DNA of 18,467 nucleotides from Candidatus Iainarchaeum sp. (GTDB taxonomy: Archaea > Iainarchaeota > Iainarchaeia > Iainarchaeales > CSSED10-239), in contig CALBUD010000025.1 in assembly GCA_937968065.1 (NCBI GenBank), positions 1 to 18,467 on the forward strand, read 5' to 3'. The notes below the pieces were generated by a model that was not told the origin of the DNA, did no database searches, and saw only the letters and a list, made by a program, of their open reading frames with translations. Shown here one piece after another: positions 4,376-18,346 of this stretch (positions within the stretch are counted from its first letter, which is position 1; each line of letters begins with the position of its first letter). A program made the position numbers and the translations under genes.

Positions 4376-5359
4376 ATGGACGCTACAAAATTTAAAAACT
4401 TTATATTTACTTTGCTTATATTTGGAGTCATCATATTTATATTTTTAATAATTTATGTTGGCAAAAAATTACAAACAAGTCTTTTATGGATTTTAGGAGT
4501 TTTTGTTTTCATATATCTTATTTTTAAATTAAAAATTATATTAACCTTAAAAGACTATGAAAGAGCAGTTATTTTTAGGTTTGGAAAAGTAAAAAGAGTT
4601 GGTGGGCCTGGTTGGACATTTGTTTGGCCATTGATTGAAAAACCAAATCTTGTAACTTTAAGAGTTGAAACTATAGATATACCTCCTCAAAATGTTTTAA
4701 CTAAAGATAATATTCAATTAAGAATAGATGGTGTTTTGTTTATTGCTGTAAATCCTGAAAAGCAAAGTGTAATTAATTCTGTTGTAAAAGTTGAAAATTA
4801 TAGAAAAGCATCAACAATGTATGTTATTGCTGTTTTAAGAGACATTGTTGGTGAGTTTGAGCTTACAGATGTTATAACGAATATTGAAGAGATAAACACA
4901 AGACTTAAAAAAGCATTAATTAAAGTTTCTGGTGAATGGGGTGTTGATGTAACTTCTGTTGAAATTACAGATATTAAGATACCTGAAGATATTTTACTTG
5001 CAATGCATGAACAAAAAGCAGCAGTTCAGAAAAAGCTTGCTATTTATGAACTTGCAGAATCTGAGAAAGCAAAGATATTAGCAGTAAGAGATGCTACTGC
5101 AAACTTAGATGAAAAAACCGTAGTTTATTACTATATAAAAGCACTTGAAAAAATGGCAGAAGGACAATCTTCAAAAATTATTTTTCCAATGGAACTTACA
5201 AATCTCTTAGAAAAAGTTTCAACAACTCTGATTAAGAAAAAAAATGTTCATGCTATTGAAGAAAAAGTAGATGAACATACTTTAAAAAATTATCTTCCAT
5301 TTATTAAAGCCTATCTTAAAGATGAAGAAAAAAATAAGAGATTAAAAAGAAGAAAATAA
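4376..5359 (+). CDS. SPFH/Band-7 (stomatin/prohibitin-like) membrane protein
   Basis: 327-aa ORF. It has two N-terminal TM helices followed by the hallmark SPFH core: DYERAVIFRFGKVKRVGGPGWTFVWPLIEKPNLVTLRVETIDIPPQNVLTKDNIQLRIDGVLFIAV ... WGVDVTSVEITDIKIPEDILLAMHEQKAAVQKK. The C-terminal tail is coiled-coil and K-rich. Confidence 0.9.
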   Translation: MDATKFKNFIFTLLIFGVIIFIFLIIYVGKKLQTSLLWILGVFVFIYLIFKLKIILTLKDYERAVIFRFGKVKRVGGPGWTFVWPLIEKPNLVTLRVETIDIPPQNVLTKDNIQLRIDGVLFIAVNPEKQSVINSVVKVENYRKASTMYVIAVLRDIVGEFELTDVITNIEEINTRLKKALIKVSGEWGVDVTSVEITDIKIPEDILLAMHEQKAAVQKKLAIYELAESEKAKILAVRDATANLDEKTVVYYYIKALEKMAEGQSSKIIFPMELTNLLEKVSTTLIKKKNVHAIEEKVDEHTLKNYLPFIKAYLKDEEKNKRLKRRK

Positions 5360-6053: not shown

Positions 6054-6857
6054 ATGAAATTAAAATTTATACTATTAGTTTTTATAGCAGTTCTTTTAAT
6101 AAATACAAATATTTATTCTTTAAAAATATTAGAACCATTAACAAAAGATTTAACTTATTCTAATACAGCTGATTTAGGTTATTTTTCTGCAGGAGAATTT
6201 TTTATGATAAGTTTTCTTCTAGAAGATGGAGATAATTACCATACCATCTCTGTTGATTCTAATCAGATAAAAGAGGTTATTGTAGAACCAACCAAGAAAA
6301 CACAAGAAAGTATATTTACAGTTATTCGTTTAGAGGATGAATTATCAGGAAATTATTCTTTAAAACTATTGTTAATATCTGATACTGAAACAAAAGAAGT
6401 TATTTTACAAATGAAAGTTACAGACGATGTTATTCATACAAACTTAATAAACTATAACCCTGTTATAAGATATGAACAAAAAGAAACTATTAATCTTAAA
6501 CTTATAAATAAATCAAACACCACAAAAACAGTTATTGTGACTTCTGATCTTCCAACAACTTGGTTTAATATTAAAAAAGAAAAATTAAATTCTGAAAAAA
6601 CAATTATCTTAACACCAAACAGTATAACTGAAACCACTTATGAATATTATCCAAAAGAGATTGGATCTAAAATAATTAATCTAAAAATATATACTTCTTT
6701 TGAAGAGGGTCTAGAAAAATATATTAGTTATAATTTAAATGTCGAAGTTGAAAAAGACTTAAAAGCAATTTATGGTTCAAGAGAACACACATATCCTTTA
6801 TTTAATGTTAATTTAATACCAATATATTTTTTAAATAAAATAATTAAAATTATATAA
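6054..6857 (+). CDS. Secreted/surface protein with a probable Ig-like (CARDB/NEW3-like) beta-sandwich domain; function unknown
   Basis: 267-aa ORF with an N-terminal signal-like segment (MKLKFILLVFIAVLLINTNIYS). The rest is beta-rich. The segment ETINLKLINKSNTTKTVIVTSDLPTTWFNI ... IILTPNSITETTYEYYPKEIGSKIINLKIYT resembles archaeal surface Ig-like domains. Confidence 0.65.
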   Translation: MKLKFILLVFIAVLLINTNIYSLKILEPLTKDLTYSNTADLGYFSAGEFFMISFLLEDGDNYHTISVDSNQIKEVIVEPTKKTQESIFTVIRLEDELSGNYSLKLLLISDTETKEVILQMKVTDDVIHTNLINYNPVIRYEQKETINLKLINKSNTTKTVIVTSDLPTTWFNIKKEKLNSEKTIILTPNSITETTYEYYPKEIGSKIINLKIYTSFEEGLEKYISYNLNVEVEKDLKAIYGSREHTYPLFNVNLIPIYFLNKIIKII

Positions 6858-6876
6858 AAACACCTAATTTTTAAAC

Positions 6877-8406
6877 ATGGATAAAAAACAACTCTCTCAA
6901 TTAAAAGAGTTTTTTAAAGATATTGATTTAGAAAATATCAAATATAGAGAATTACAAAAATTAAAATCAGAGTTTGCAAAAAAATATAACACATCTAAAC
7001 TACCATTAACTTCAGATCTTTTAAATTGTTTAAAGATACAAAAACCAACAGATACTTTTATAACAAAACCTTCAAGGACTTTATCTGGAGTTACAATAAT
7101 TTCTGTTATGACAAAACCAGATAAATGTCCTGGAAATTGTATTTTTTGCCCTACTTTTAAAGATACTCCTAAAAGCTATACTGGTTTTGAACCTGCGAGC
7201 ATGCGAGGAAAATTAAATAACTTTAATCCTTATAAACAAATAAAAGATAGACTTGCACAACTTAAGGCAATAGGACACCCTACAAACAAATTAGAATTAA
7301 TTATTATGGGAGGAACCTTTCCTGCAACTGATGTTAAATATCAAAAAGAATTTATGATTAAGTGTTTTCAAGCAATTACAAATTCAAAGAGCACAGATTT
7401 AAATCATTTAAAAAAATTATTAATGAAATCTAAGAGAAGAGTTGTTGGAATTACATTTGAAACAAGACCTGATTATTGTGATGAAAAAATAATTAAAAGA
7501 CTACTTGATTTTGGAGGAACAAGAGTTGAAATTGGAGCTCAAACAGTTCAAGATGAAGTACATTTGTTTGTTAAAAGAGGACATACTATAAAAGAAATTA
7601 TTGAAAGTACTAGAAAATTAAAAGACTCTGGTTTTAAGGTACTTTATCATATGATGTTAAACCTTCCTTCTAGTAATCTTAAAAAAGATTTTGAAGATTT
7701 TAAAGAAATTTTTAAAAATCCAGATTATTGTCCAGATATGATTAAGATATACCCTTGTTTAGTTACAGAAAACAGTGTTCTTGAAAAAATGTATTATGCA
7801 GGCAAATATAAGTCATATTCTGAAAAAGATGTTATAAAACTAATTGCTGATATTAAAGAAATAGTACCTAAATGGGTAAGAATAATGAGAGTTCAAAGAG
7901 ATATACCAGCAACAAAAATTCTTGCAGGTATGACAAAAAGTAATTTGAGAGAACTTGTTTTTAAAGAAATGGAAAGAAGAAAAACAAAGTGTAATTGTAT
8001 TAGATGTTGTGAACCTAAATCAAATATAGATAATATTAAAAAATACAGTATTAAAAAAATCAAATATGCAGCATCTAAAGGAAAAGAATACTTTATATAT
8101 GCTGAAAAAGAAAATTATTTATTAGGATTTTTAAGATTAAGAATACCGTTTAAACCTTTTGTTAAAGAAATTACAAAAAAAACAGCAATTGTTAGAGAAT
8201 TACATGTTTATGGACAAGCAACTAAGTTTAAAGATAAAAATATTCAACATAGAGGTGTTGGAAAAAAACTATTAAAGATAGCAGAAGAAATTGCAAGAAA
8301 AGAAAAAATGAATAAAGTTGCTGTTATTAGTGGTATTGGAGTTAGAGAATATTATAAAAAACAAGGATATAAACTTGAAAAGATATATATGGTAAAAAAG
8401 ATTTAA
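6877..8406 (+). CDS. elp3: Elp3-family tRNA U34 modification enzyme (radical SAM plus GNAT acetyltransferase)
   Basis: 509-aa ORF. Radical-SAM cysteine motif CPGNCIFC at 7126-7149 (CX3CX2C). TIM-barrel-type blocks: ELIIMGGTFPA, GITFETRPDYC, RVEIGAQTVQDEV, RGH. Cys-rich KCNCIRCCE segment. C-terminal GNAT motif A: VRELHVYG ... QHRGVGKKLLKIAEEIA. This domain order is diagnostic of Elp3. Confidence 0.9.
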   Translation: MDKKQLSQLKEFFKDIDLENIKYRELQKLKSEFAKKYNTSKLPLTSDLLNCLKIQKPTDTFITKPSRTLSGVTIISVMTKPDKCPGNCIFCPTFKDTPKSYTGFEPASMRGKLNNFNPYKQIKDRLAQLKAIGHPTNKLELIIMGGTFPATDVKYQKEFMIKCFQAITNSKSTDLNHLKKLLMKSKRRVVGITFETRPDYCDEKIIKRLLDFGGTRVEIGAQTVQDEVHLFVKRGHTIKEIIESTRKLKDSGFKVLYHMMLNLPSSNLKKDFEDFKEIFKNPDYCPDMIKIYPCLVTENSVLEKMYYAGKYKSYSEKDVIKLIADIKEIVPKWVRIMRVQRDIPATKILAGMTKSNLRELVFKEMERRKTKCNCIRCCEPKSNIDNIKKYSIKKIKYAASKGKEYFIYAEKENYLLGFLRLRIPFKPFVKEITKKTAIVRELHVYGQATKFKDKNIQHRGVGKKLLKIAEEIARKEKMNKVAVISGIGVREYYKKQGYKLEKIYMVKKI

Positions 8407-8407
8407 T

Positions 8408-8725
8408 ATGGATAAAAATGAAAGATTAATTGAAATGGTTGAAAAAGAACCAGAACTTTTAAAAATACTTAATTCTGAAGAGCATATGCGTGTTTTGCTT
8501 GAAATTAATAGAAAAGCACAAAAAAATGAAGAACTTAAGGTAAATATATATTTTAAAAATGTATCTATACTATATAATATATTAGATACACTTATATCAA
8601 ACAAATTAATTAAAAAAACAGAAATTGATAAAGACATAGTTTATTATCTTACAGATAAAGGAGAAGAGTTTGTTGAGTTGTATCTAAACACAAAAGAGAA
8701 ATTTAACTTAGGTGGTGAAAACTAA
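8408..8725 (+). CDS. Small winged helix-turn-helix (ArsR/TrmB-like) protein, putative transcription regulator
   Basis: 105-aa ORF whose ATG lies 1 nt after the elp3 stop. The pattern ELLKILNSEEHMRVLLEI ... VSILYNILDTLISNKLIKKTEIDKDIVYYLTDKGEEF matches a wHTH layout: helix, recognition helix, then a wing ending in Y-L-T-x-x-G. Confidence 0.55.
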   Translation: MDKNERLIEMVEKEPELLKILNSEEHMRVLLEINRKAQKNEELKVNIYFKNVSILYNILDTLISNKLIKKTEIDKDIVYYLTDKGEEFVELYLNTKEKFNLGGEN

Positions 8726-9076
8726 ATGAAAACATTTTTAGGAATTTTAAGTACTGGAAAAGGTACTTGGGGGCAAGTTGCACACATTATTGATAACACA
8801 GATTACGACAAAGTTTATTTAATATCTAATGAATGGGCACAAGATAAGTTTACTTGTTCAAAAAAAGTAAATTGGATAATCATTGATCCTAGAAAAGGAT
8901 TTTCAGAAATTGTAACAGATATTGAAAATCAAATTGCAAAAGATTTAAATGATATTGAACTTAATCTTCATTCAGGAAGTGGAAAAGAGCATAGTGCAAT
9001 ATTATCTATATTATTAAAAAACAAAATTAAATTTAAAATTGTAACAATTAATGCAGATGGTATAGTAAGATATTAA
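8726..9076 (+). CDS. Small alpha/beta (Rossmann-like) protein with two Gly-rich loops; possible minimal CARF-like or nucleotide-binding sensor domain
   Basis: 116-aa ORF whose ATG immediately follows the wHTH stop (TAA-ATG). A strong SD (AGGTGGTGA) is embedded in the end of the upstream gene. The hydrophobic strand/amphipathic helix pattern alternates: TFLGILS, KVYLISN, NWIIID, IELNLHS, KFKIVTI. The loops are STGKGTW (8750-8770) and NLHSGSGK (8963-8986). Confidence 0.55.
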   Translation: MKTFLGILSTGKGTWGQVAHIIDNTDYDKVYLISNEWAQDKFTCSKKVNWIIIDPRKGFSEIVTDIENQIAKDLNDIELNLHSGSGKEHSAILSILLKNKIKFKIVTINADGIVRY

Positions 9077-9096
9077 ATGATAGGGGATAAATTAAA

Positions 9097-12000
9097 TTGT
9101 TAAATAAAAAATATTTAATAATTTTTTTATTAGTTATTTTAGTTGGGCTTTCTGGCTGTATTGACTTTATAACCACACAAGAAAAGCAAGCTTGTCTTGC
9201 TTTAACTCATTTTTCTTCAACTTCTATATTGGGTTGTAGCACTCAAAATTCTTGCTACAAACAAGTTGAAAATTTGGATATTTTATCAAATGAAAATTTA
9301 CCATATGAAATATCTAATGATATTTTAATGTATGAAAATTATGTTGCTTCTAGTTATTATTATTATAACCAAAGTTCTAAACTTTTAGAAAAAATAAATA
9401 ATGCTTGTTTTAATGAAAAACCTAAAGATTTAGTTGAGAATGTTAATGAACTTATGTTTTTCTTTTCTCAGTTGTTTGAATATTTAGATAAAACATCTAA
9501 ACAAAGCATATTTTTGTTAATCGATTATTCTATTTATCTTGAAAAAGAAGAAGTTTATTTAATTCCTGAAGAAAAATTATATGATGACTTTATTTTGTTA
9601 AATAATAATTTAAATCAATTAAAAGAAATAAAAAATAAAGATACATATGTTTATAGAATAAATGAAGAAGTTGAAAATCTTCATTATCTTGCTCAAGATC
9701 TTGGATTTAATAGGACATATATATCTAAACAGAATTTTAGTGATTTATCTGAATATTATTTAAAAGTGTATGAAGAAGAAGTAAGTGCACATGAGATTTA
9801 CATTCCAGAAGTTTTTGAAATTGGGAGTTATGTTTTTAAAAAAATATCTGATATTGAAAGTTTAAGAAAAATTAATCTTAATCTTAATAGAATTGAAAGC
9901 TATAATTTTTATAATGTTTTAAATAGATTTATTGGAAAAGACAACTCTATATTGATTGATTTTAAAGAAATAAATAATAATGTAAATAATAATTTAGAAA
10001 ACGTTTTTTTAAAAATAAAACATTTAGAAATAAGTATTGAAGATAATCAAAAATATTTGACCGAAGATACATATCTTGAGTTTAAACAAAATAAAAATTC
10101 TTTTAAAAATAAAGAAATTAGTTTTGGAAGATATCTTGCATATCTAAAAACAATTGATAATTTGGTATCTAAAAACAAAATAAATTTAGATCTTTTAGAT
10201 GCTGAAGAAAAAAGATTGCTTTTAGAGTGTGATTTGGTAATAGCTGATGCAAAAACATACACTAATATTTTTTATAAAACTAAAATTGATGAATATTTGT
10301 TAAATGATAGTTTTATTGAAAAAATAAAAATTTGTGATCAATTAAAACAAGCAATAAATGAAGATTTTTGTCTTTTAAAAATAAATAATTTTTTAACCAC
10401 AGAAGTTTTAGAAACAAAAGAATATGAGTTGTTTATTTTTGAAGATGATTTGATGTGTAGAGAAACAGTTGGAAATATTAATTATAAGTTAAGTTCTAAT
10501 GAAAAAATATTGTTAATTGAAAAAATATTATTTGGTTTAAAACAATATATACAAGAGATAGAAACAAATGTTATAAAAAACGAAAATAAAAAAAGAATTA
10601 TTGAAATAAAAGAAATTGTTTTAAAAATTGATTTTGAAGAAAATATTGTAAAAATTATTAATATAGATTCTAAAATAGATAGATTAATAGAGCAAGAAAA
10701 AGAATTAGATGGTATTGCAAAAAATAGTATTGTTGAAAATAAATTGTTTGATATAAAACATGTAGAGGGAGAATATTATTTTAATATTTATAATCCTTAT
10801 TTTAAAACAATAGAAGAAGTTAGTTTTGAAAATAGATATAACGAAATAACAAGTGATAACCCTAACCTTAAAATTACAACTACTAAGATTACTGCACAAA
10901 AATTATTTTCTGGAGATAATTTATATAAGATAAATTATATTAATAAAAAAATAATTACTTTTGATATATTGAGATTAGATTTAGAAGAATCAATTATAAA
11001 AGTTAATATAAAAAATGAAGTAGAAGGTATTTATGATTTTTTTGATTTTATACCAGGATTTAAAACAAATTCTTCACAAGTTGATATAAATAATTCAAAA
11101 ATAACTTATTTGACAGAAAAAGAAAATAATATTTTTCTTTTTGGAAACTTATTTGAAAGAGAAAGTAATATAGAGGTAGATGAAATTTACTTAGATAAAT
11201 ATATATTAATTGAAAAAATTTCAGTTAAAAATAATTATTTAAAAAATATTGATCAAAAAATTTATTTTAAACCAATCAATAACACAGAAACAATAATTAT
11301 TACAGAAAATAAAAAAGAAATCACGCCTGTTATTGAAAATGGATACGTTACATTTATATTAAAAATAAATCAAAAAGAAACAAAACACTATGAAATACAA
11401 ATGTTGAAAGAAAAAGAAGAAATAAACTTGTTAGTTGAAACATATCTTTTAAAATTAAATAAATATCAATTATCAAGATTTGAAAATATTAAAAACGAAA
11501 GTGAGATTTTATTTAAAGATATAAAAAGTATAAATTTAAATAAAGAATATTCTATTACAGATATTAAAAAAATATTAGATAAAACAAATTATTTCGAAAA
11601 TATTGATTTAAAAATAAATAATTCAGAACTTGCAGAAATAAATTATTTAAAGTTATATAATAACATAAACCTAGAAGAATTAACAGTTTCTGAAAAAAAC
11701 AAATTAGATAAGATAGATTATAATAAATATAAAGATATTGTTGATGCAGAAGAAGAATTGAAAAAGTTATTACTTGAAATTCAAGAAAGAAAAAATGAAG
11801 AAGAAGAAACAAAAATCAAAATTGATGAAATACAATTGAATAACTTAAAAGAAAAAATAACTAAATATAATTTAGAAGGTATAGAGTTAAGTAAATATAA
11901 AGATTTAGAAGAGATCGATAAAATAATTAAAGATAAATTAAAAGAACATGCTCAAAATATATATTTAAACATAAATCCAGATATAACTGGTTTAAACACA

Positions 12001-12579
12001 AGAAAGATTGAAGAGTTAATAAATAAGATTTATATATTATACGAAGATTATTCTTTAAGAGATTTATATAACATCAATTATTTTGCAAGCATAACTATTA
12101 ATGACGCAGAAAGACTTGAAAAAAACAAAGATTTTTTAGATACTGTTATGTTTAATAATGAACTTTTAAAATTTGAAGAAAATTATAATGCAGAAGAATA
12201 TGAAAAAGCAATAAATTCTATTTCTACTCAGACTATAAGTAGAATTGAAAAAATAAAAACTGAAATGAATTTATTAGAAAAAGGACTAGAAGAAGTTAAA
12301 AAAGATGCAAAAGAACTAATTACTTCTTCTCAAAAAAATAATTTTGATTCTGAAATATTAGAATTTGCAAAAGTTAATTATGAGAATGAAAAATATCTAA
12401 ACACAATTATTTTATTAAAAGAAAATAAAGTAAATAAAAATAAACTAAATATAAATCAATATTTAATAGGAATTGTTATAGTTTTTATTTTTGGACTAAT
12501 ATATGCTTATTTTAAGATAGGGAATAAGAAAAAAGAAGAAACAAAACAAGAGAAGAAAAAAAAGATTATAAGACACTAA
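9097..12579 (+). CDS. Giant (1160 aa) surface protein: signal peptide with lipobox, long coiled-coil-rich ectodomain, C-terminal TM anchor with K-rich tail
   Basis: The longest ORF in the window. It has a TTG start (9097-9099) preceded by AGGGGAT (9082-9088). There is no in-frame ATG until about residue 77, so TTG is needed to keep the signal peptide MLNKKYLIIFLLVILVGLSGC (lipobox LSGC, Cys codon 9157-9159). The C-terminus is YLIGIVIVFIFGLIYAYFKIGNKKKEETKQEKKKKIIRH. Confidence 0.8.
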   Translation: MLNKKYLIIFLLVILVGLSGCIDFITTQEKQACLALTHFSSTSILGCSTQNSCYKQVENLDILSNENLPYEISNDILMYENYVASSYYYYNQSSKLLEKINNACFNEKPKDLVENVNELMFFFSQLFEYLDKTSKQSIFLLIDYSIYLEKEEVYLIPEEKLYDDFILLNNNLNQLKEIKNKDTYVYRINEEVENLHYLAQDLGFNRTYISKQNFSDLSEYYLKVYEEEVSAHEIYIPEVFEIGSYVFKKISDIESLRKINLNLNRIESYNFYNVLNRFIGKDNSILIDFKEINNNVNNNLENVFLKIKHLEISIEDNQKYLTEDTYLEFKQNKNSFKNKEISFGRYLAYLKTIDNLVSKNKINLDLLDAEEKRLLLECDLVIADAKTYTNIFYKTKIDEYLLNDSFIEKIKICDQLKQAINEDFCLLKINNFLTTEVLETKEYELFIFEDDLMCRETVGNINYKLSSNEKILLIEKILFGLKQYIQEIETNVIKNENKKRIIEIKEIVLKIDFEENIVKIINIDSKIDRLIEQEKELDGIAKNSIVENKLFDIKHVEGEYYFNIYNPYFKTIEEVSFENRYNEITSDNPNLKITTTKITAQKLFSGDNLYKINYINKKIITFDILRLDLEESIIKVNIKNEVEGIYDFFDFIPGFKTNSSQVDINNSKITYLTEKENNIFLFGNLFERESNIEVDEIYLDKYILIEKISVKNNYLKNIDQKIYFKPINNTETIIITENKKEITPVIENGYVTFILKINQKETKHYEIQMLKEKEEINLLVETYLLKLNKYQLSRFENIKNESEILFKDIKSINLNKEYSITDIKKILDKTNYFENIDLKINNSELAEINYLKLYNNINLEELTVSEKNKLDKIDYNKYKDIVDAEEELKKLLLEIQERKNEEEETKIKIDEIQLNNLKEKITKYNLEGIELSKYKDLEEIDKIIKDKLKEHAQNIYLNINPDITGLNTRKIEELINKIYILYEDYSLRDLYNINYFASITINDAERLEKNKDFLDTVMFNNELLKFEENYNAEEYEKAINSISTQTISRIEKIKTEMNLLEKGLEEVKKDAKELITSSQKNNFDSEILEFAKVNYENEKYLNTIILLKENKVNKNKLNINQYLIGIVIVFIFGLIYAYFKIGNKKKEETKQEKKKKIIRH

Positions 12580-12641
12580 TTAATAGAAAATAAGATAATT
12601 ATATAAATTATTTGATAGTATTTATATATTGGGAATTAAAT

Positions 12642-13808
12642 ATGTTTAAAAAAAATATGTTATTTATAATTGGATTATTACTCTTAATCTCTAGTGGAAT
12701 CTATGGAAGTGTTTTAGATGAAAAAACCTTGCAAGATATAACACCAGGAGATTTAATTATAAATAAAGATGAAAGCATATGTCAAGAATATTCTTTTTCC
12801 ATAGCAGGTATTGATGATAAGTCAAAAGCTTTTTTGCAATTATTTATTAAAAATTATATTCCTATTCAATCTAATGTAAGTATAACTGTATTTTTAGATG
12901 ATATTGAGATTAAAGAAGTAAAAAATAAAGATATATTAGAAAAAAATATAATTGAGCTAACTAATATAAAGTCAGAAAACAATCTAAAAATCTGTATTGA
13001 AAATAATTATTTACCAAGAATTGTGATAGATCAAAAAAGTATTATAGGTAATTATTATGTTGGAGAGATTAAAGAAGATGATTTTTATCAAAATGCACCT
13101 ACAACGGCTTACACTAACACTATGATACCAATTGATTTATTTGTAAGAAATAGTGGATATGATGATTTATATATTGAAGTTATAAATGCTACTGATAAAT
13201 TTATATATAATTCAAATCTTGAAAATGTTTCTGGAGAAACACATTTTAAAGGAATTTTAAAATCACAAGAAACACTCACATTAAATTATTTTGTAAAAAC
13301 TAGTTTAGATACTTCTTTTGCAACTCCACTTGCTAAATTGACTTACACAGATAATTTTGGAGTTAAACATACAAGATTAATAGAAACAAAAGTAATAAAC
13401 TTAATTGAACAAGAATCAAATATACAAGTATATACAGATATATTTAGAAAAATAGAGCCAAATAAAGAATATAAAGGTAATCTTATAATTAGAAATAATT
13501 CTGAAAAGATAATTTCTGATATTTATATATTTAATAATTTTAAGGGCACAATTATTTTAGATACAGACTATATTAATGAAATAGAACCAAAAAATGTAAT
13601 TGAAATTCCATTTTTAATAAAAACATATAAAGAAGATACATATCCTCTTAATTTTAATATTTATTATAAGACAAACAATATTGAAAAAAATGTAGGGTCT
13701 CCACTTATAAATATAATTTCAGAGAACGAAGAAAATAAAGAAAGTACAGCAATAACAATTTTAATTATTTTAACTATAATTTTATTTATATGGATTGTTA
13801 AAATTTAA
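12642..13808 (+). CDS. Surface protein with signal peptide, Ig-like (CARDB-like) repeats and a C-terminal TM anchor; function unknown
   Basis: Start moved to the ATG at 12642 (MFKKNMLFIIGLLLLISSGIYG is a good signal peptide); the TTG-extended ORF from 12612 adds only 10 non-signal residues. Two segments fit a beta-sandwich surface-domain pattern: IPIDLFVRNSGYDDLYIEVINA and YKGNLIIRNNSEKIISDIYIFNNF. The C-terminal TM is AITILIILTIILFIWIVKI. Confidence 0.72.
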   Translation: MFKKNMLFIIGLLLLISSGIYGSVLDEKTLQDITPGDLIINKDESICQEYSFSIAGIDDKSKAFLQLFIKNYIPIQSNVSITVFLDDIEIKEVKNKDILEKNIIELTNIKSENNLKICIENNYLPRIVIDQKSIIGNYYVGEIKEDDFYQNAPTTAYTNTMIPIDLFVRNSGYDDLYIEVINATDKFIYNSNLENVSGETHFKGILKSQETLTLNYFVKTSLDTSFATPLAKLTYTDNFGVKHTRLIETKVINLIEQESNIQVYTDIFRKIEPNKEYKGNLIIRNNSEKIISDIYIFNNFKGTIILDTDYINEIEPKNVIEIPFLIKTYKEDTYPLNFNIYYKTNNIEKNVGSPLINIISENEENKESTAITILIILTIILFIWIVKI

Positions 13809-15544
13809 ACAATTCTTTTAAATAATTTTTCTACATCTTTTAAAGAAATGAAAATTATTGTTGGTCTTCCGTGAGCGCAAACACCTTTATCTGAACATAA
13901 ACTTAACTTTTTAACTAACTCTATTTGTTCAGAAATAGAAAGTTCTTGATTTGCCTTTATAGATTCTTTACAAGATTTTAATTTTAAAAGATTGTCTTTT
14001 AATTTTTCAATCTCATTATTGTTATTTTCTAAATCATTTATTAGATTTAAAAAAATATTTTTATCAAAAACTTTATTTAAAAATAACGGAACAGTTGTTA
14101 AATAAAAATAATTATTTTTAAGAATAAAAGAAAACCCTAATTTTTCAATAATTAGTTTATTTTTTAATAAGGTTTTTTTATTACTTTCAGTTAAAATATC
14201 TAAAATAACAGGAGTTATTAAATTTTGATGTTCGATAATAGAGCTGTATTTTACACGGTTTTTCTCTAAATTTATTCTTTCATCAGCAGCGTGCTGATCT
14301 ATTAAAAGCATTCCTTTTTTAGTTTCACAAACAATAAAGGTTCGGTGTATTTGTCCAAGAAATCTAGTTATTTCATGAGAAAACAAATTAATTTCATCAA
14401 TTTTTGAAAACTGATTAAAAGTTTGTTGTGTTTTATATTCTGAAAATAAAGGTTTATTTTCTTTTAAAGAAAAATTTATTTTATTTGATTTAAAAGAAGA
14501 GTTGTATTTTGAATTGTTAGATGTATTTGGTAAAATAAAATCTTTTAATGAATTATAAGAAGAGTTAGGAAGTTCTTTACCTAGGTTTTTGTCTAAAATT
14601 TTAGATAATTCTTTTTTAAATTCAACTAAAAATAAAGTTTCATTTAATAATTTAACAACTCTTTTTTTAGGGTGTACATTAACATCTAAAGTACTAGGTT
14701 TTAAAGTAATAAATAAAATAAAAAAGGGTTTTTGTTGAATCATTAAATAATCTTTATAAGAGCTAGTTATTGCTTTATAGATTTGTGGAGAAAATATATA
14801 TCTTTTATTAATAAATAAAAAATTAGTTGGGAGATATATAGGATTTGCAGGATTTGTAATAAAACCAGTGACTGAAAAAAAATCATTTGCAACATCTATT
14901 TTAAGAGTTTTATTTTTTATTTCAAAACCGTATATTTGAACAAATCTATTATCAAAATTAGTTTTTGTAAAAGTAATATTTTTCTTTTCAGATATAAATT
15001 TAAAAGTTATTTGTGGATTTATTAATGTATGTGCTAAAAAAACATCATACAGTTTAGAAAATTCAAAACTTTTTGATTTTAAAAATTTTTTTCTTACTGG
15101 TACATTATAAAATAAGTCACTTATCTGTATTGTTGTACCTTTAATAGAAGAGGTTTCAGAAATTTTTTTATTTGATAAAACATATCCTTTACCATCATTA
15201 TTTGTAGAAGTTATAATTTTTAATTTAGAAATTGAATTAATTGAAGATAGTGCTTCTCCTCTAAAACCAAAAGAATTAAGATTGTAAAGATCATCAATAG
15301 AATTTATTTTACTTGTAGTGTATTTGTCCAAACAAATTTCTAGATCTTTTTTACTGATACCTATACCATTATCTTGAATTTCAATATATTCCATACCAGA
15401 TGATTTAACTTTTACAGTTATTTCTGTTGCGTTTGCATCTACTGAGTTTTCTATAAGTTCTTTTAAAATATCTGAAGGACCTTCAATTACTTCTCCAGCA
15501 CTTATTTGATTTATTGTTTCTTCAGATAATTTTTTAATAACCAT
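13805..15544 (-). CDS. mutL: DNA mismatch repair protein MutL (endonuclease-type)
   Basis: 579-aa ORF. GHKL ATPase motifs: INQISAGEVIE, ELIENSVDANAT, DNGIGI, GFRGEALSS, GTTI. The C-terminal domain has DQHAADERINLE (14264-14299), SCKESIKAN, CAHGRP (13862-13879) and a terminal FKR. This is the full motif set of nicking-proficient MutL. The gene starts 13 nt after the mutS stop. Confidence 0.92.
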   Translation of the reverse strand: MVIKKLSEETINQISAGEVIEGPSDILKELIENSVDANATEITVKVKSSGMEYIEIQDNGIGISKKDLEICLDKYTTSKINSIDDLYNLNSFGFRGEALSSINSISKLKIITSTNNDGKGYVLSNKKISETSSIKGTTIQISDLFYNVPVRKKFLKSKSFEFSKLYDVFLAHTLINPQITFKFISEKKNITFTKTNFDNRFVQIYGFEIKNKTLKIDVANDFFSVTGFITNPANPIYLPTNFLFINKRYIFSPQIYKAITSSYKDYLMIQQKPFFILFITLKPSTLDVNVHPKKRVVKLLNETLFLVEFKKELSKILDKNLGKELPNSSYNSLKDFILPNTSNNSKYNSSFKSNKINFSLKENKPLFSEYKTQQTFNQFSKIDEINLFSHEITRFLGQIHRTFIVCETKKGMLLIDQHAADERINLEKNRVKYSSIIEHQNLITPVILDILTESNKKTLLKNKLIIEKLGFSFILKNNYFYLTTVPLFLNKVFDKNIFLNLINDLENNNNEIEKLKDNLLKLKSCKESIKANQELSISEQIELVKKLSLCSDKGVCAHGRPTIIFISLKDVEKLFKRIV

Positions 15545-15557
15545 ATAATCACAAAAT

Positions 15558-18017
15558 TTAATTTTTATAATCTACCATTTTTTTTTGTTCTTTAGAGTTA
15601 GGTGTAATTTTTAAAAAAACCTCTTCTTCTAGTTCTTTTTGTATTTTTAAAGCATTTTCAATAAGGTTGTTTGGAAGTCCTGCTAATTTAGCTACTTGAA
15701 TACCATAACTTTTATTAATTCCACCTTCTATTAACTTATGAAAAAATAATAAATTTGTTCCTTCCTCTTTTGCAGTTACGTGAAAATTTTTAATCCCTTT
15801 AAATAAAACTTCCATTTTGTTTAATAAATGATAGTGGGTTGCAACTAATGTTTTAGAATTAATAAAATTATTTAAATATTCTATTATTGACCAAGCCAAA
15901 CTTAATCCATCATATGTGCTTGTTCCTCTTCCAACTTCATCTAAAATAACAAAACTATTTTTAGTACAATTATTTAAAATATATGCAATTTCAGACATTT
16001 CTACTAAAAAAGTACTTTGGCCATGAATAATATCATCAGAAGCACCAACTCTTGTAAATACAGCATCAATAAAACCTATTTCAGATTCTTTTGCAGGAAT
16101 AAAGCAACCGATATGTCCAAGAATAATTGCAAGGCAAACACTTCTCATATAACTGCTTTTACCAGACATGTTTGGTCCTGTAATTATCATTGTTTTTGTA
16201 TTTTCGTTTAATTTGCAATCATTTGGAATAAAAGTAACTAATTTTTCTATAATTGGATGTCTTAAGTCTTTGAAAAAAAGATTGTTAGAATTATTTAATT
16301 TAGGTTTATAAAAATTATTTTTTGAAGAGGTAATTGCATGAGATAAATATACATCTAATTCTGCAATTATATTTGCAGTTAATAAAATTTGTTCTTTATA
16401 AGTTAATATTTGTTTGCAAAGATCTAAAAAAATGTTATATTCTAATTCTATTCTTTTTTCATTAGAATTTAGAAGAATATTTTCTTTATCTGAAAGTTCT
16501 TTTGTTGTAAACCTTTCAGCATTAACCAAAGTTTGTTTTCTTTCAAAATAATCAGGTGCTTGGTTTGCTTGTAGTTTAGAAATTTCTATATAATATCCAA
16601 AAATTTTATTATATTTTACTTTTAGAGATTTTATATTAGTTTCGTTTCTTAATTTGTTTTCAAATTCTACAAGCCAAGAATTAATTGATTTATTTATGTT
16701 AATTATATTATATAATTCTTCTGAAAAATTCGGTTTTATAAATTTACCTTCTCTTACACTAAAAGGAGGTTCATCAATAATAGTTCTATCTATTAGTTTA
16801 AATAATTCATTTAAAGTAATTAAATTTTTATTTAATTTTATTAGATTATCTGAAGTTGTGTTTTTTAAAATTATCTTTAATTTAGGTAATATTGAAATAC
16901 TTTGTTTTAAACTAATTAAATCTCTAGGGTTTGCATTTCCAAACCCTATTTTACTAATTATTTTTTCAAGATCTCCAATATAAGATAATTGTAAAGAGAG
17001 TCCTTGTAATAAATGTGTGTTATTTATTAATTCTTGGACAGAATTATTAATATTAATTAATTCTTTTTTATTTAAAAGAGGGTGTAAAATATCAAAATAT
17101 AATTTTCTATAACCTAAAGGGGTTTTTGTATTATTAATTAAATAAAATAAACTGTCTTTTATAGAGTTGTTTTGTAGATTTGAAACTAGTTCTAAATGTC
17201 TAACTGTTTTACTATCTAGTTTTAAATATTCATTTAAAGAATAATCTTTAATTTTACTAATATAAGTAACTTCTGAAAATTGAGTTTCTTTTATGTATTT
17301 AAGAGCATTATAACAAGAAATTATCAATTCTGGGGTTTTAAAAATATCTAATCCAAAAGTAGTTAGTGATTTTAATTTAAAATGAGTTAATAAACTATTA
17401 TTTGATAATTCTAAATCTAAATTATCTGTGTAATTAATAATTGTATTAGGAATTGTTTTTTTAATATCTTCTATAATATTAATATCTTTTAATAAATTTT
17501 TAGTTAATAATAATTCTTTTGGTTTAATTAAAGAAAGTTCATTTAATATTGTTTGAATAGAATTAAATTTAGTTGTTTTAAAATCACCAGTAGTAATATC
17601 TATTAATGAAAATCCAAAAAAACCTTTATAAAAAGAAATAGAACACAAAAAATTATTTTCATAATTGTCATTAAAAAATGTGCTTGGTGTAATTATTCTT
17701 GTAACTGCTCTTTTAACTAATCCTTTTGCAAATTTAGGGTCTTCTATTTGTTCGCAAATAACTACTTTTTTACCAGCTTTAATTAATTTAGATATGTAAG
17801 GGTCAATAGAATGATAAGGAATTCCTGCAAGTGGTGCTTGAGTGTCTCCCTTTCCTCTTTTTGTTAAAGTTATATTTAATATATTAGATGCAATTTTAGC
17901 ATCATCGTAAAACATTTCATAAAAATCACCAGCTCTAAATAATAAAATACCTTCTGGATATTGTTTTTTAGTATCTATATATTGTTTCATCATTGGTGTG
18001 TAGTTATTTTCTTGCAT
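15558..18017 (-). CDS. mutS: DNA mismatch repair protein MutS (MutS1 type)
   Basis: Start set at the ATG at 18015-18017 (MQENNYTPMMKQYIDTKKQYP...). The upstream 29 codons of the track ORF run into tRNA-Phe. Mismatch-recognition motif GDFYE at 17916-17930. Walker A GPNMSGKS at 16155-16178. Also STFLVEMSE, DEVGRGTSTYDG and THYH. Confidence 0.92.
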   Translation of the reverse strand: MQENNYTPMMKQYIDTKKQYPEGILLFRAGDFYEMFYDDAKIASNILNITLTKRGKGDTQAPLAGIPYHSIDPYISKLIKAGKKVVICEQIEDPKFAKGLVKRAVTRIITPSTFFNDNYENNFLCSISFYKGFFGFSLIDITTGDFKTTKFNSIQTILNELSLIKPKELLLTKNLLKDINIIEDIKKTIPNTIINYTDNLDLELSNNSLLTHFKLKSLTTFGLDIFKTPELIISCYNALKYIKETQFSEVTYISKIKDYSLNEYLKLDSKTVRHLELVSNLQNNSIKDSLFYLINNTKTPLGYRKLYFDILHPLLNKKELININNSVQELINNTHLLQGLSLQLSYIGDLEKIISKIGFGNANPRDLISLKQSISILPKLKIILKNTTSDNLIKLNKNLITLNELFKLIDRTIIDEPPFSVREGKFIKPNFSEELYNIININKSINSWLVEFENKLRNETNIKSLKVKYNKIFGYYIEISKLQANQAPDYFERKQTLVNAERFTTKELSDKENILLNSNEKRIELEYNIFLDLCKQILTYKEQILLTANIIAELDVYLSHAITSSKNNFYKPKLNNSNNLFFKDLRHPIIEKLVTFIPNDCKLNENTKTMIITGPNMSGKSSYMRSVCLAIILGHIGCFIPAKESEIGFIDAVFTRVGASDDIIHGQSTFLVEMSEIAYILNNCTKNSFVILDEVGRGTSTYDGLSLAWSIIEYLNNFINSKTLVATHYHLLNKMEVLFKGIKNFHVTAKEEGTNLLFFHKLIEGGINKSYGIQVAKLAGLPNNLIENALKIQKELEEEVFLKITPNSKEQKKMVDYKN

Positions 18018-18079
18018 AATATAATATATAATAGAAAACTTATTTAAAAATGAGTTTATTTTATTTTTAAAAAGATAAG

Positions 18080-18153
18080 TGGCTCCGGTGGGATTTGAAC
18101 CCACGACACATAGGTCTTCAGCCTATTGCTCTCCCAGGCTGAGCTACGGAACC
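18080..18153 (-). tRNA. tRNA-Phe (anticodon GAA)
   Basis: Hand-folded cloverleaf on the - strand: GGTTCCG TA GCTC AGCCTGGGA GAGC A ATAGG CTGAAGA CCTAT GTGTC GTGGG TTCAAAT CCCAC CGGAGCC A. All stems pair, with U3-G70 as a wobble. G37 is present. CCA is not encoded. 74 nt. Confidence 0.93.
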
Positions 18154-18168
18154 AATATTTTTTTAACG

Positions 18169-18243
18169 TGAGCTCGGTGGGATTTGAACCCACGACACCT
18201 GGATTAAGAGTCCAGTGCTCTAACCGAACTGAGCTACGAGCCC
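18169..18243 (-). tRNA. tRNA-Lys (anticodon CUU)
   Basis: Hand-folded on the - strand: GGGCTCG TA GCTC AGTTCGGTTA GAGC A CTGGA CTCTTAA TCCAG GTGTC GTGGG TTCAAAT CCCAC CGAGCTC A. 75 nt, no encoded CCA. Confidence 0.93.
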
Positions 18244-18272
18244 AATTTCTTAAAAAAATATTAAAATTAATG

Positions 18273-18346
18273 TGAATCCGGTGGGATTTGAACCCACGAC
18301 ACCTGGATTAAAAGTCCAGTGCTCTGCCAGACTGAGCTACGGATCC
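18273..18346 (-). tRNA. tRNA-Lys (anticodon UUU)
   Basis: Hand-folded on the - strand: GGATCCG TA GCTC AGTCTGGCA GAGC A CTGGA CTTTTAA TCCAG GTGTC GTGGG TTCAAAT CCCAC CGGATTC A. 74 nt, no encoded CCA. Confidence 0.93.

Follow-up and report, generated by a model that had tools for sequence, protein, structure and literature searches.

A stand-alone CARF-fold protein and two envelope proteins encoded side by side in Candidatus Iainarchaeum, probably as two neighbouring units rather than one sensor-regulated system

In the current analysis we have considered a run of four closely spaced genes encoded on the + strand of an 18,467-nucleotide stretch of DNA from Candidatus Iainarchaeum sp. (assembly GCA_937968065.1, contig CALBUD010000025.1), the whole of which is referred to as the window. 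The four genes encode a 105-residue winged helix-turn-helix (wHTH) protein, a 116-residue protein referred to here as mini-CARF, a giant protein of 1160 residues and an Ig-like protein of 388 residues. A sequence-only reading of this DNA had proposed that they constitute a sensor-regulated surface or adhesion module. This proposal could not be sustained, as the order of the four genes is not syntenic beyond close relatives. We assign a probability of about 0.7 to the view that two juxtaposed units, and not one system, make up the 5.4-kb stretch. Unit A (8408-9076) would be an old, vertically inherited pair of wHTH and mini-CARF genes, and unit B (9097-13808) would comprise the genes of two clade-specific, rapidly evolving envelope proteins that came to lie beside unit A through a rearrangement, with its breakpoint right after the mini-CARF gene. 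The noteworthy part of the stretch is mini-CARF which, as judged from its modelled structure, is a bare minimal CARF domain outside every named CARF family.

The mini-CARF family has been collected by an exhaustive HMMER search, and 80 loci encoding its members have been retrieved. Open reading frames (ORFs) of these loci were called in this analysis, with starts that are possibly over-extended, and were searched with the window proteins and with hidden Markov models (HMMs); the remaining ORFs were clustered and the clusters checked by Pfam. A close clade of 20 species-level genomes, with mini-CARF proteins 70-95% identical, has retained the order wHTH, mini-CARF, giant and Ig-like gene in every genome. 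This four-gene synteny carries no information, because the entire 18-kb window is collinear in the clade from a 354-residue ORF to MutS. The closest contexts (L001-L007) are uninformative likewise, the loci being collinear as a whole.

About 32 distant loci of Iainarchaeota encode a mini-CARF of 37-46% identity within the order TYW3, gene of a 267-residue protein, Elp3, (wHTH), mini-CARF, PF10107 nuclease, Pelota and ABCE1. The genes that follow mini-CARF in these distant genomes are thus the nuclease, Pelota and ABCE1, not the surface genes, and the HMMs of the giant and Ig-like proteins have no match in 60 distant loci. The wHTH gene precedes mini-CARF in 20 of the 30 distant Iainarchaeota loci that could be evaluated. 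The breakpoint between conserved and clade-specific gene order is situated exactly between the mini-CARF and giant genes.

Conservation within the close clade also differs along the locus. The median identity to the window protein is highest for mini-CARF (76%), which is better conserved than MutS (66%) or Elp3 (64%) of the same locus and is under very strong purifying selection. The corresponding values are 43% for the wHTH protein, 39% for the 267-residue protein, 37.5% for the Ig-like protein and 33%, the lowest, for the giant protein. The breakpoint after mini-CARF, together with the unlike ages and rates of the genes, therefore leads us to regard the cluster as two units side by side.

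The positions and spacing of the four genes, read directly from the sequence, agree with those given in the sequence-only reading. The stop codon of Elp3 (TAA, 8404-8406) is separated by 1 nucleotide from the ATG of the wHTH gene at 8408, whose own stop codon (TAA, 8723-8725) is followed without a gap by the ATG of the mini-CARF gene at 8726. The end of the latter at 9076 is 20 nucleotides away from the start of the giant gene at 9097, and 62 nucleotides separate the end of the giant gene (12579) from the ATG at 12642. Such tight spacing is usual for a compact genome and is not peculiar to these genes. The same-strand run begins two genes before the wHTH gene, at 6054, with the gene of the 267-residue protein followed after 19 nucleotides by Elp3, and convergent gene pairs of the window are equally tight (1 nucleotide at 5359/5361 and an overlap of 4 nucleotides at 13808/13805). 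All six same-strand genes (6054-13808) may be co-transcribed, through genome compaction and without a conserved functional link. The window has about 20% GC throughout, and a repeat search over 8300-13900 has yielded AT-rich chance matches only.

Translational coupling of the mini-CARF gene to the wHTH gene through a Shine-Dalgarno sequence had also been suggested. The motif AGGTGGTGA does lie inside the wHTH gene, but the junction is not conserved and the window shows no enrichment of GGTGA (6 observed vs 8.3 expected). The junction of 0 nucleotides is retained only in the closest relatives; the gap is 9-24 nucleotides in the rest of the close clade, where one apparent overlap is due to an over-extended ORF call, and mostly 39-215 nucleotides in the distant Iainarchaeota. 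Hence coupling is possible in this organism, without being conserved as a feature.

The proposal of a single module, in which mini-CARF would sense a ligand, the wHTH protein would transduce the signal and both would control the two envelope genes as an operon, draws upon the common strand, the gaps of 0, 20 and 62 nucleotides, the lack of any oligo-T run between the four genes and the retention of their order in all the 20 genomes of the close clade. It is common for local regulators to control the genes next to them. The short gaps and the missing T-run count to that extent against our preferred arrangement of two units, since gene order alone is compatible with regulation of the surface genes by the wHTH protein in this clade. 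We nevertheless consider a single module unlikely. Collinearity spanning the whole window is nothing specific to the four genes, and equally tight spacing ties Elp3 and the gene of the 267-residue protein to the run. The wHTH/mini-CARF pair predates the surface genes by far and is followed by different genes elsewhere, the conservation of the two parts differs more than two-fold (76% vs 33%), and mini-CARF is encoded without a wHTH or surface gene in Woesearchaeota, Nanoarchaeia and Methanofastidiosa. If the cluster consists of two units, the attractive operon of a sensor plus surface proteins reflects a chance order of genes in one clade and is not to be propagated as a system.

As regards the individual products, the sequence-only reading had described a wHTH protein, a small α/β protein of ligand-binding type, a giant protein anchored at both ends and an Ig-like protein, none of them referable to a functionally characterised family. 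These descriptions have been borne out, the last statement by scans of Pfam, NCBIfam and PDB sequences. The second protein can be specified further as having a predicted CARF fold. Its single-chain AlphaFold2 model has a mean predicted local distance difference test score (pLDDT) of 91.7 and the topology β1-α1-β2-α2-β3-α3-β4-α4-β5-β6, in which β5 and β6 form a hairpin. The strands comprise residues 3-7, 29-34, 49-52, 77-80, 103-109 and 112-115, and the helices residues 12-23, 36-41, 59-69 and 87-98. The chain ends at residue 116, directly past strand 6, and is devoid of any fused effector domain. The 45 best matches of the model in a Foldseek search of the PDB are all CARF proteins and represent at least seven families. 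The top match is to Can2 (E=1.3e-5, query TM-score 0.68-0.71), and others are to Cdn1, Csa3, Csm6, Crn1/Sso2081, Cam1 and Card1. Rossmann folds of the RCK and SDR types rank lower in the list.

The CARF superfamily is defined by a six-stranded Rossmann-like core with strands 5 and 6 as an antiparallel β-hairpin; its members conserve a Ser or Thr at the end of strand 1 (motif I) and a basic residue past strand 4, often within the signature [DN]X[ST]XXX[RK] (PMC4012209; PMC13148439). Both these sites have been named as ligand-binding regions in the 2014 CARF paper (PMC4012209). The mini-CARF model has the six strands and the β5-β6 hairpin, and the two conserved loops of the family, LSTGKGTW past strand 1 and HSGSGKEH past strand 4, are situated at the two CARF ligand-binding sites. 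The segment past strand 1, which ends at residue 7, is L8-S9-T10-G11-K12-G13-T14-W15 and supplies the Ser/Thr of motif I; S9 is invariant in the close clade, and the family-wide conservation of K12, G13 and W15 is at least 90%. S83, G84, G86 and H89 are invariant family-wide. The segment N80-L-H-S83-G-S-G-K87 yields [ST]XXX[K], with its Asn one residue farther than in the CARF signature.

At the level of sequence, mini-CARF has no Pfam or NCBIfam family, and neither the protein nor the family profile has a CARF match in HMMER searches of PDB sequences. A PADLOC scan of 36 diverse members of the family matched 23 families, ten of which are CARF models, all of them weak. The best match is to CARF_m11 (E 1.8e-5, 3 of 36 members). 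None of these matches comes from the window mini-CARF, which does not reach E 0.1 against CARF_m11. The placement in the CARF superfamily is hence made because of the fold matches, the β5-β6 hairpin, the positions of the motifs and the weak PADLOC matches to CARF models taken together. A PADLOC scan of the 116-residue protein itself has likewise yielded nothing significant, its matches to Csn2 (E ~1e-3) having been judged spurious. Two members of the family matched HFX_2341_N (E 0.07) and one member of the wHTH family matched DUF6293_C (E 0.002), both too weak to use; these two domains may be the two halves of one archaeal protein family.

A different view takes the 116-residue protein for a small protein of generic Rossmann- or flavodoxin-like type (chelatase-like, for example), whose CARF fold matches are convergent. 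The lack of a HMMER match to any solved CARF sequence and the presence of RCK and SDR folds farther down the Foldseek list would agree with this, and the best PDB sequence matches of the protein and its profile are to SRP54 and FetB (E 0.06-0.14), the latter through a weak alignment of the GHGTEH motif to this CbiK-type haem-binding protein (E 0.14). CARF proteins however account for all of the first 45 fold matches, the diagnostic antiparallel hairpin is present, ten PADLOC CARF models recur among the weak matches of the family, and 116 residues are far too few for a CbiK chelatase. A generic fold is therefore the least probable of the explanations considered. The JGI labels of some mini-CARF orthologues (among P0002, P0018, P0027 and P0208) as cobalamin biosynthesis Co2+ chelatase CbiK, and of one as ERCC4-related helicase, look like misannotations; the motif-level alignment to FetB is the sole support found for the former, and probably the origin of this label.

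The family comprises 182 representatives, defined as clusters at 50% identity, almost all of them of 115-120 residues and nearly all of about 117. In a species survey by pattern scan, with one genome per species, mini-CARF has been found in at least 315 species-level archaeal genomes, mostly of DPANN. The labels Aminicenantes, Thaumarchaeota and Methanosarcinales borne by the metagenome-assembled genomes (MAGs) of some loci are probably due to mis-binning, as judged from gene context. No viral relatives have been identified in an IMG/VR scan or a BFVD fold search. A literature search has revealed no paper linking CARF with these lineages, the classification of Makarova et al. 2020 being outside that search.

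In the distant Iainarchaeota (L033-L085) a gene of the PF10107 family, described as endonuclease related to Holliday junction resolvase, is directly 3' of mini-CARF on the same strand in 29 of the 32 loci, often with a gap of -23 to +20 nucleotides. The encoded protein (Pfam E=2.7e-19) is about 120 residues long, has an N-terminal transmembrane helix and retains an invariant PxD...ExK motif (E52, PxD76, E89-F-K91) of the PD-(D/E)xK type. Its profile has no match among PDB sequences. The nuclease is encoded neither in the window, where the best E-value of the profile against the six-frame translation is 0.12, nor in the close-clade loci L001-L027.

In about 22 distant Iainarchaeota loci, as in the close clade, Elp3 adjoins the wHTH/mini-CARF genes. 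It is on the opposite strand in 6 distant loci, where the orientation of the wHTH-mini-CARF unit is unchanged, and it directly precedes mini-CARF with no intervening wHTH gene in about 5 (L050, L051, L057, L062, L072). Directly before Elp3, both the close clade and 21 distant Iainarchaeota loci encode a homologue of the 267-residue protein (HMM E 1e-9 to 3e-23), at a gap of -21 to +47 nucleotides in those distant loci where Elp3 is on the same strand. This protein is β-rich and secreted, with a signal peptide, and has no Pfam family at significance. This association with Elp3 predates that of the giant and Ig-like genes.

In Woesearchaeota/Nanoarchaeia and a few otherwise labelled MAGs the neighbours of mini-CARF vary, and include ZPR1, ThiI, Orc1/Cdc6, diphthamide synthase and others. 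The 112 neighbours examined in 21 non-Iainarchaeal loci consist of ZPR1, ThiI, Orc1/Cdc6, Dph2, ATP synthase, SecDF and similar proteins, with no Cas10 gene and no gene of the cyclic-oligonucleotide-based anti-phage signalling system (CBASS) among them. No homologue of the window-type wHTH protein, and no surface gene, is found beside mini-CARF in any locus of another phylum. Orc1/Cdc6 is directly 3' of mini-CARF in several Woesearchaeota/Nanoarchaeia loci (L046, L059, L063). One protein of 279 residues (P0088) joins the first 75 residues of mini-CARF to Orc1/Cdc6 sequence and is probably a frameshift or assembly chimera, not a genuine fusion.

The Methanofastidiosa (L047, L056, L064, L069, L070, L073, L074, L083, L086) have a fixed context, in which an aminotransferase gene overlaps the mini-CARF start by 10 nucleotides and a LarA-like gene follows mini-CARF. 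The order on the 5' side is V-ATPase subunit D, AI-2E permease, class I/II aminotransferase and then mini-CARF; the LarA-like protein is followed on the 3' side by an ArsR-type wHTH protein, a small membrane protein and XPB helicase. Iainarchaeota have a wholly different neighbourhood.

No cas, Cas10, CBASS or cyclase genes are encoded within about 8 kb of mini-CARF in any of the 80 loci, and the sole defence-like neighbour is one TnpB-like ORF. A neighbour labelled by PADLOC as 'Csx1 (found elsewhere)' has been considered as a link to CRISPR and rejected, as it is a TnpB/Cas12f-like transposon protein of one Woesearchaeota locus. The PADLOC model concerned, PDLC01039, gives a full-length match to this TnpB/Cas12f-like protein (L055:8427-9524, - strand; E 6e-36), and its name is misleading for neighbourhood analyses.

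The 105-residue protein is a cytoplasmic wHTH protein predicted from its sequence to bind DNA. As a single sequence it gives weak matches to HTH_45 (4.8e-4), PadR, HxlR and Sso10a_fam (5e-5). A profile of 20 orthologues matches the PDB sequence of YodB (5hs7, E=2e-6) over profile positions 29-95, and further those of QsrR (1.5e-4), a HxlR-family protein (6e-4) and PadR (8e-3). HTH_45 is matched by 13 of the 20 family members. The window protein alone scores 20.5 bits against HTH_45, below the Pfam gathering score of 25.5 bits, and no assignment to one specific family is made for this reason. No hydrophobic segment has been found in the protein.

Among the characterised CARF systems, Csa3, the regulator of type I-A CRISPR composed of CARF and wHTH domains (PDB 2wte, 6w11), has the same two modules as unit A, and is among the significant fold matches of mini-CARF (E 3.5e-4 to 8e-4). 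In Csa3 the modules form one polypeptide with an N-terminal CARF and a C-terminal wHTH domain, whereas here they are encoded by separate genes with the wHTH gene first, and no fusion of about 220 residues is present among the 150 family representatives listed. Csa3 is linked to CRISPR, unlike mini-CARF with its 80 loci free of cas genes, and the wHTH protein is dispensable in many lineages. Neither window protein matches the PADLOC models of Csa3, and one member of the mini-CARF family does so at E 0.023.

The best structural matches of mini-CARF are to Can2/Card1 (8q3y, 8q41, 8bao; E 1e-5 to 2e-4, query TM-score 0.66-0.71), proteins of the CARF4 group in which a CARF domain is fused to a PD-(D/E)xK nuclease that cyclic tetra-adenylate (cA4) activates. 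The PF10107 gene that directly follows mini-CARF in the distant Iainarchaeota is of the same nuclease type. It is however not fused to mini-CARF, belongs to another Pfam family, has the N-terminal transmembrane helix and is missing from the window and the close clade, and there is no type III CRISPR near mini-CARF. Crn1/Sso2081 and Csx15 resemble mini-CARF in being small CARF-only proteins with conserved residues in the β1-α1 loop (motif I) and past β4. Sso2081 is longer (aligned PDB chains of 168-184 residues), and Csx15 has lost one strand while mini-CARF keeps all six (PMC13148439). Mini-CARF differs from both in its vertical inheritance, its high conservation and its lack of association with CRISPR. 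The family is in all a minimal, non-CRISPR, vertically inherited CARF family, though, as compared with the 2020 groups through PADLOC models only, it may already be listed among them, for example as CARF_m11, a minor group of Makarova et al. 2020 and the best match of its members in sequence.

By analogy with every characterised CARF protein, mini-CARF would most likely form a homodimer, which would bind a nucleotide-derived small ligand in a pocket lined by the GKGTW and SGSGKEH loops. As it has no effector domain, it would have to act via separate partners, or else sequester or degrade the ligand. Either of the latter is known for CARF proteins that stand alone, Csx15 among them (PMC13148439). 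In this organism the wHTH protein encoded upstream is the only candidate partner nearby, and the two could constitute a ligand-responsive regulator that resembles Csa3 but is made of two polypeptides. In most other Iainarchaeota mini-CARF and the membrane-anchored PD-(D/E)xK nuclease encoded downstream might be the components of a split arrangement resembling Can2/Card1. We favour such a split, partner-dependent sensor, because the neighbouring modules match those that are fused to CARF in Csa3 and Can2/Card1, and because Can2 is the best structural match. The extreme conservation, the fixed place among translation and tRNA genes and the lack of a viral, CRISPR or defence context point to a role in housekeeping signalling or sensing and not in mobile defence.

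Mini-CARF could tentatively be viewed as a housekeeping sensor that is inherited vertically and belongs to the core of Iainarchaeota, Woesearchaeota/Nanoarchaeia and Methanofastidiosa, a minimal and possibly ancestral CARF that would function outside antiviral defence and might report a nucleotide or RNA-end signal of translation or tRNA status to a separate wHTH partner and, in most Iainarchaeota, a membrane-anchored nuclease partner. Several points weigh against the split, partner-dependent sensor. Every step suggested for its working is an analogy. Some members have R, N, I, A or T in place of K87, the basic residue expected past strand 4. The wHTH gene is not beside mini-CARF in about one third of the distant Iainarchaeota loci and in all other phyla, and so its product cannot be an obligatory partner. 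No fusion of CARF with a wHTH or nuclease domain exists among the 150 representatives listed, the nuclease is missing from the close clade, and outside Iainarchaeota no partner is constant. Since the wHTH gene is often absent, the nuclease is missing here and no constant partner occurs elsewhere, mini-CARF must have a function of its own.

In another view mini-CARF would be an extrinsic ring nuclease or a sponge for cyclic oligoadenylates, damping a type III CRISPR or cyclic-nucleotide defence encoded elsewhere. Mini-CARF resembles Crn1 and Csx15 in standing alone without an effector domain, Sso2081/Crn1 is among its fold matches, and the motif-II loop has an invariant His (H89) and Ser (S83). 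Of the csx15 genes, about 25% lie apart from CRISPR loci as orphans, and a sponge function is known for some (PMC13148439). We consider this role improbable in view of the 80 loci with no cas or cyclase genes within about 8 kb, the absence of viral homologues and the absent or marginal PADLOC matches to named ring-nuclease and Csx families; a fixed place among core genes and the highest conservation of the locus are also unlike the patchy occurrence of mobile defence genes.

A somewhat better, though still doubtful, candidate is a housekeeping factor of translation or tRNA biology, for instance a sensor of RNA ends or an accessory of Elp3. The divergent CARF domain of RtcR reportedly senses damaged RNA ends or those with a 2',3'-cyclic phosphate (Hughes et al. 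2020). RtcR is an accepted member of the CARF superfamily outside CRISPR (PMC4012209). Elp3 adjoins mini-CARF in the close clade and the distant loci described above, in some of them without an intervening wHTH gene; the surrounding block holds TYW3, Pelota, ABCE1 and a RqcH-like gene, and ThiI, ZPR1 and diphthamide synthase recur as neighbours in other phyla. Elp3 is, on the other hand, inverted with respect to mini-CARF in 6 loci and is no neighbour outside Iainarchaeota, where the genes next to mini-CARF in Methanofastidiosa encode the aminotransferase and LarA-like protein. The translation and tRNA flavour of the neighbours (Elp3, TYW3, Pelota, ABCE1, ThiI, ZPR1, Dph2) is suggestive, and the block may be mere conserved synteny of core genes.

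To our knowledge, CARF domains have been described almost exclusively as cyclic-oligoadenylate sensors of type III CRISPR defence, either fused to effectors or as ring nucleases. The mini-CARF family is unusual in being a bare domain of 116-119 residues, with no Pfam or NCBIfam model, that is so widely distributed and occupies a fixed place among translation and tRNA genes. If the housekeeping sensor suggested above is real, CARF signalling has a second, non-CRISPR physiological role in small-genome archaea. If mini-CARF binds a signalling nucleotide, archaea with reduced genomes keep a CARF-type signalling step in their core physiology, and a search for the ligand and for the enzyme that makes it becomes a new aim. 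With its small size, soluble appearance and confident model, the protein makes the question directly testable.

The two products of unit B are ordinary for DPANN genomes, being clade-specific and fast-evolving envelope proteins. In the giant protein, residues 1-28 and 1117-1142 form hydrophobic segments, and the tail is rich in Lys. A lipobox of the form L-[AS]-[GA]-C is present as L18-S19-G20-C21 (LSGC); L15, S19, G20 and C21 are invariant in the 8 homologues found in the databases, all of them of the close clade, as are eight further Cys of the ectodomain. A weak match to LPAM_1 (E 0.12) has been obtained, and there is no significant match in Pfam, NCBIfam, PADLOC or PDB sequences. The protein is predicted from its sequence to be an envelope protein with a lipobox Cys, putatively lipidated, and a C-terminal transmembrane anchor. 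Its TTG start agrees with a public gene call (P0197) and with the N-termini of the homologues.

The AlphaFold2 model of the 388-residue protein (pLDDT 85.6) consists of an N-terminal helix, three all-β domains (about residues 24-140, 148-255 and 261-360) with an Ig-like sandwich fold, and a C-terminal helix (366-387). Foldseek gives 396 PDB matches at E<=1e-3, led by tandem sandwiches of the Ig-like, ASH, MG and FnIII types; the leading ones (E 5e-10 to 1e-6) are to central-pair proteins, Cep192 SPD-2, transglutaminase C-terminal barrels, RbmA and alpha-2-macroglobulin. The likeness is one of predicted fold only and implies no family or function. Nothing significant has been found in Pfam, NCBIfam and PADLOC scans, and the only homologues are 17 proteins of the close clade. 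The Ig-like and 267-residue proteins share no detectable similarity, and their paralogy is unsupported. The mechanically called ORF of this gene extends from a TTG at 12612 to 13808; the most likely start is the ATG at 12642, as the public gene call on the same contig (P0180, 388 residues) begins there.

The surface proteins share with archaeal surface proteins that have Ig-like domains and C-terminal anchors (S-layer or adhesin-like) a signal peptide or lipobox, a C-terminal transmembrane helix with a basic tail, tandem β-sandwiches, conserved ectodomain cysteines and fast evolution. They differ from these in having no sequence or profile match to any described family. They are probably part of the cell surface, with an adhesion or S-layer-like role.

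Table 1. Positions of the gene run in the window and of example nuclease genes in distant Iainarchaeota loci (the latter numbered within the locus named)
Feature	Position	Strand	Basis or remark
Gene of 267-residue protein, first of the same-strand run (context only)	6054..6857	+	N-terminal hydrophobic segment, residues 1-26
Elp3, radical SAM and GNAT tRNA-modification enzyme	6877..8406	+	Radical_SAM_C 3.7e-25, Radical_SAM 4.6e-19, Acetyltransf_1 3e-7, ELP3_N
105-residue cytoplasmic wHTH protein, predicted	8408..8725	+	Family profile against PDB, HTH_45
Shine-Dalgarno-like AGGTGGTGA, inside the wHTH gene	8710..8718	+	Read from sequence; 7 nucleotides before the mini-CARF ATG
116-residue stand-alone minimal protein of predicted CARF fold (mini-CARF)	8726..9076	+	AlphaFold2 model, Foldseek
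1160-residue predicted envelope protein, TTG start	9097..12579	+	Hydrophobic segments, invariant lipobox
388-residue predicted type-I membrane protein with three Ig-like domains	12642..13808	+	AlphaFold2 model, Foldseek
PF10107 nuclease, locus L052	8367-8732		
PF10107 nuclease, locus L071	8344-8721		
PF10107 nuclease, locus L036	4031-4393		

Pfam and NCBIfam scans have identified the housekeeping genes RqcH-like, DUF373, Band-7, TYW3 and Elp3 in the window, which also contains MutL and MutS on the minus strand and three tRNA genes. The genomes nearest to it are MAGs under the names Candidatus Iainarchaeum or "ainarchaeum", together with that of Candidatus Forterrea multitransposorum, which is complete, and the window is accordingly that of an archaeon of Iainarchaeota (Diapherotrites, DPANN). 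The bacterial-type mismatch-repair pair MutS/MutL (13805-18104, - strand) is encoded in this small-genome DPANN archaeon, and its position is conserved throughout the clade. The tRNA genes Phe-GAA, Lys-CTT and Lys-TTT are situated just upstream of MutS, within 18079-18346 (- strand). The mechanically called MutS ORF (15558-18104, - strand) starts with a GTG at 18104 and overlaps the tRNA-Phe gene, which places the true start farther in, probably at the Met of 'MQENNYTPMMKQY'. The MutS of L001 is divided between two ORFs, with domain I separate. The RqcH/NFACT-like protein encoded at 1161-2207 has 348 residues as against the 645 positions of the NCBIfam model, which it matches far below the cut-off (E 6e-25). 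It appears to be a shortened form, and the orthologues in the relatives are also of about 365 residues.

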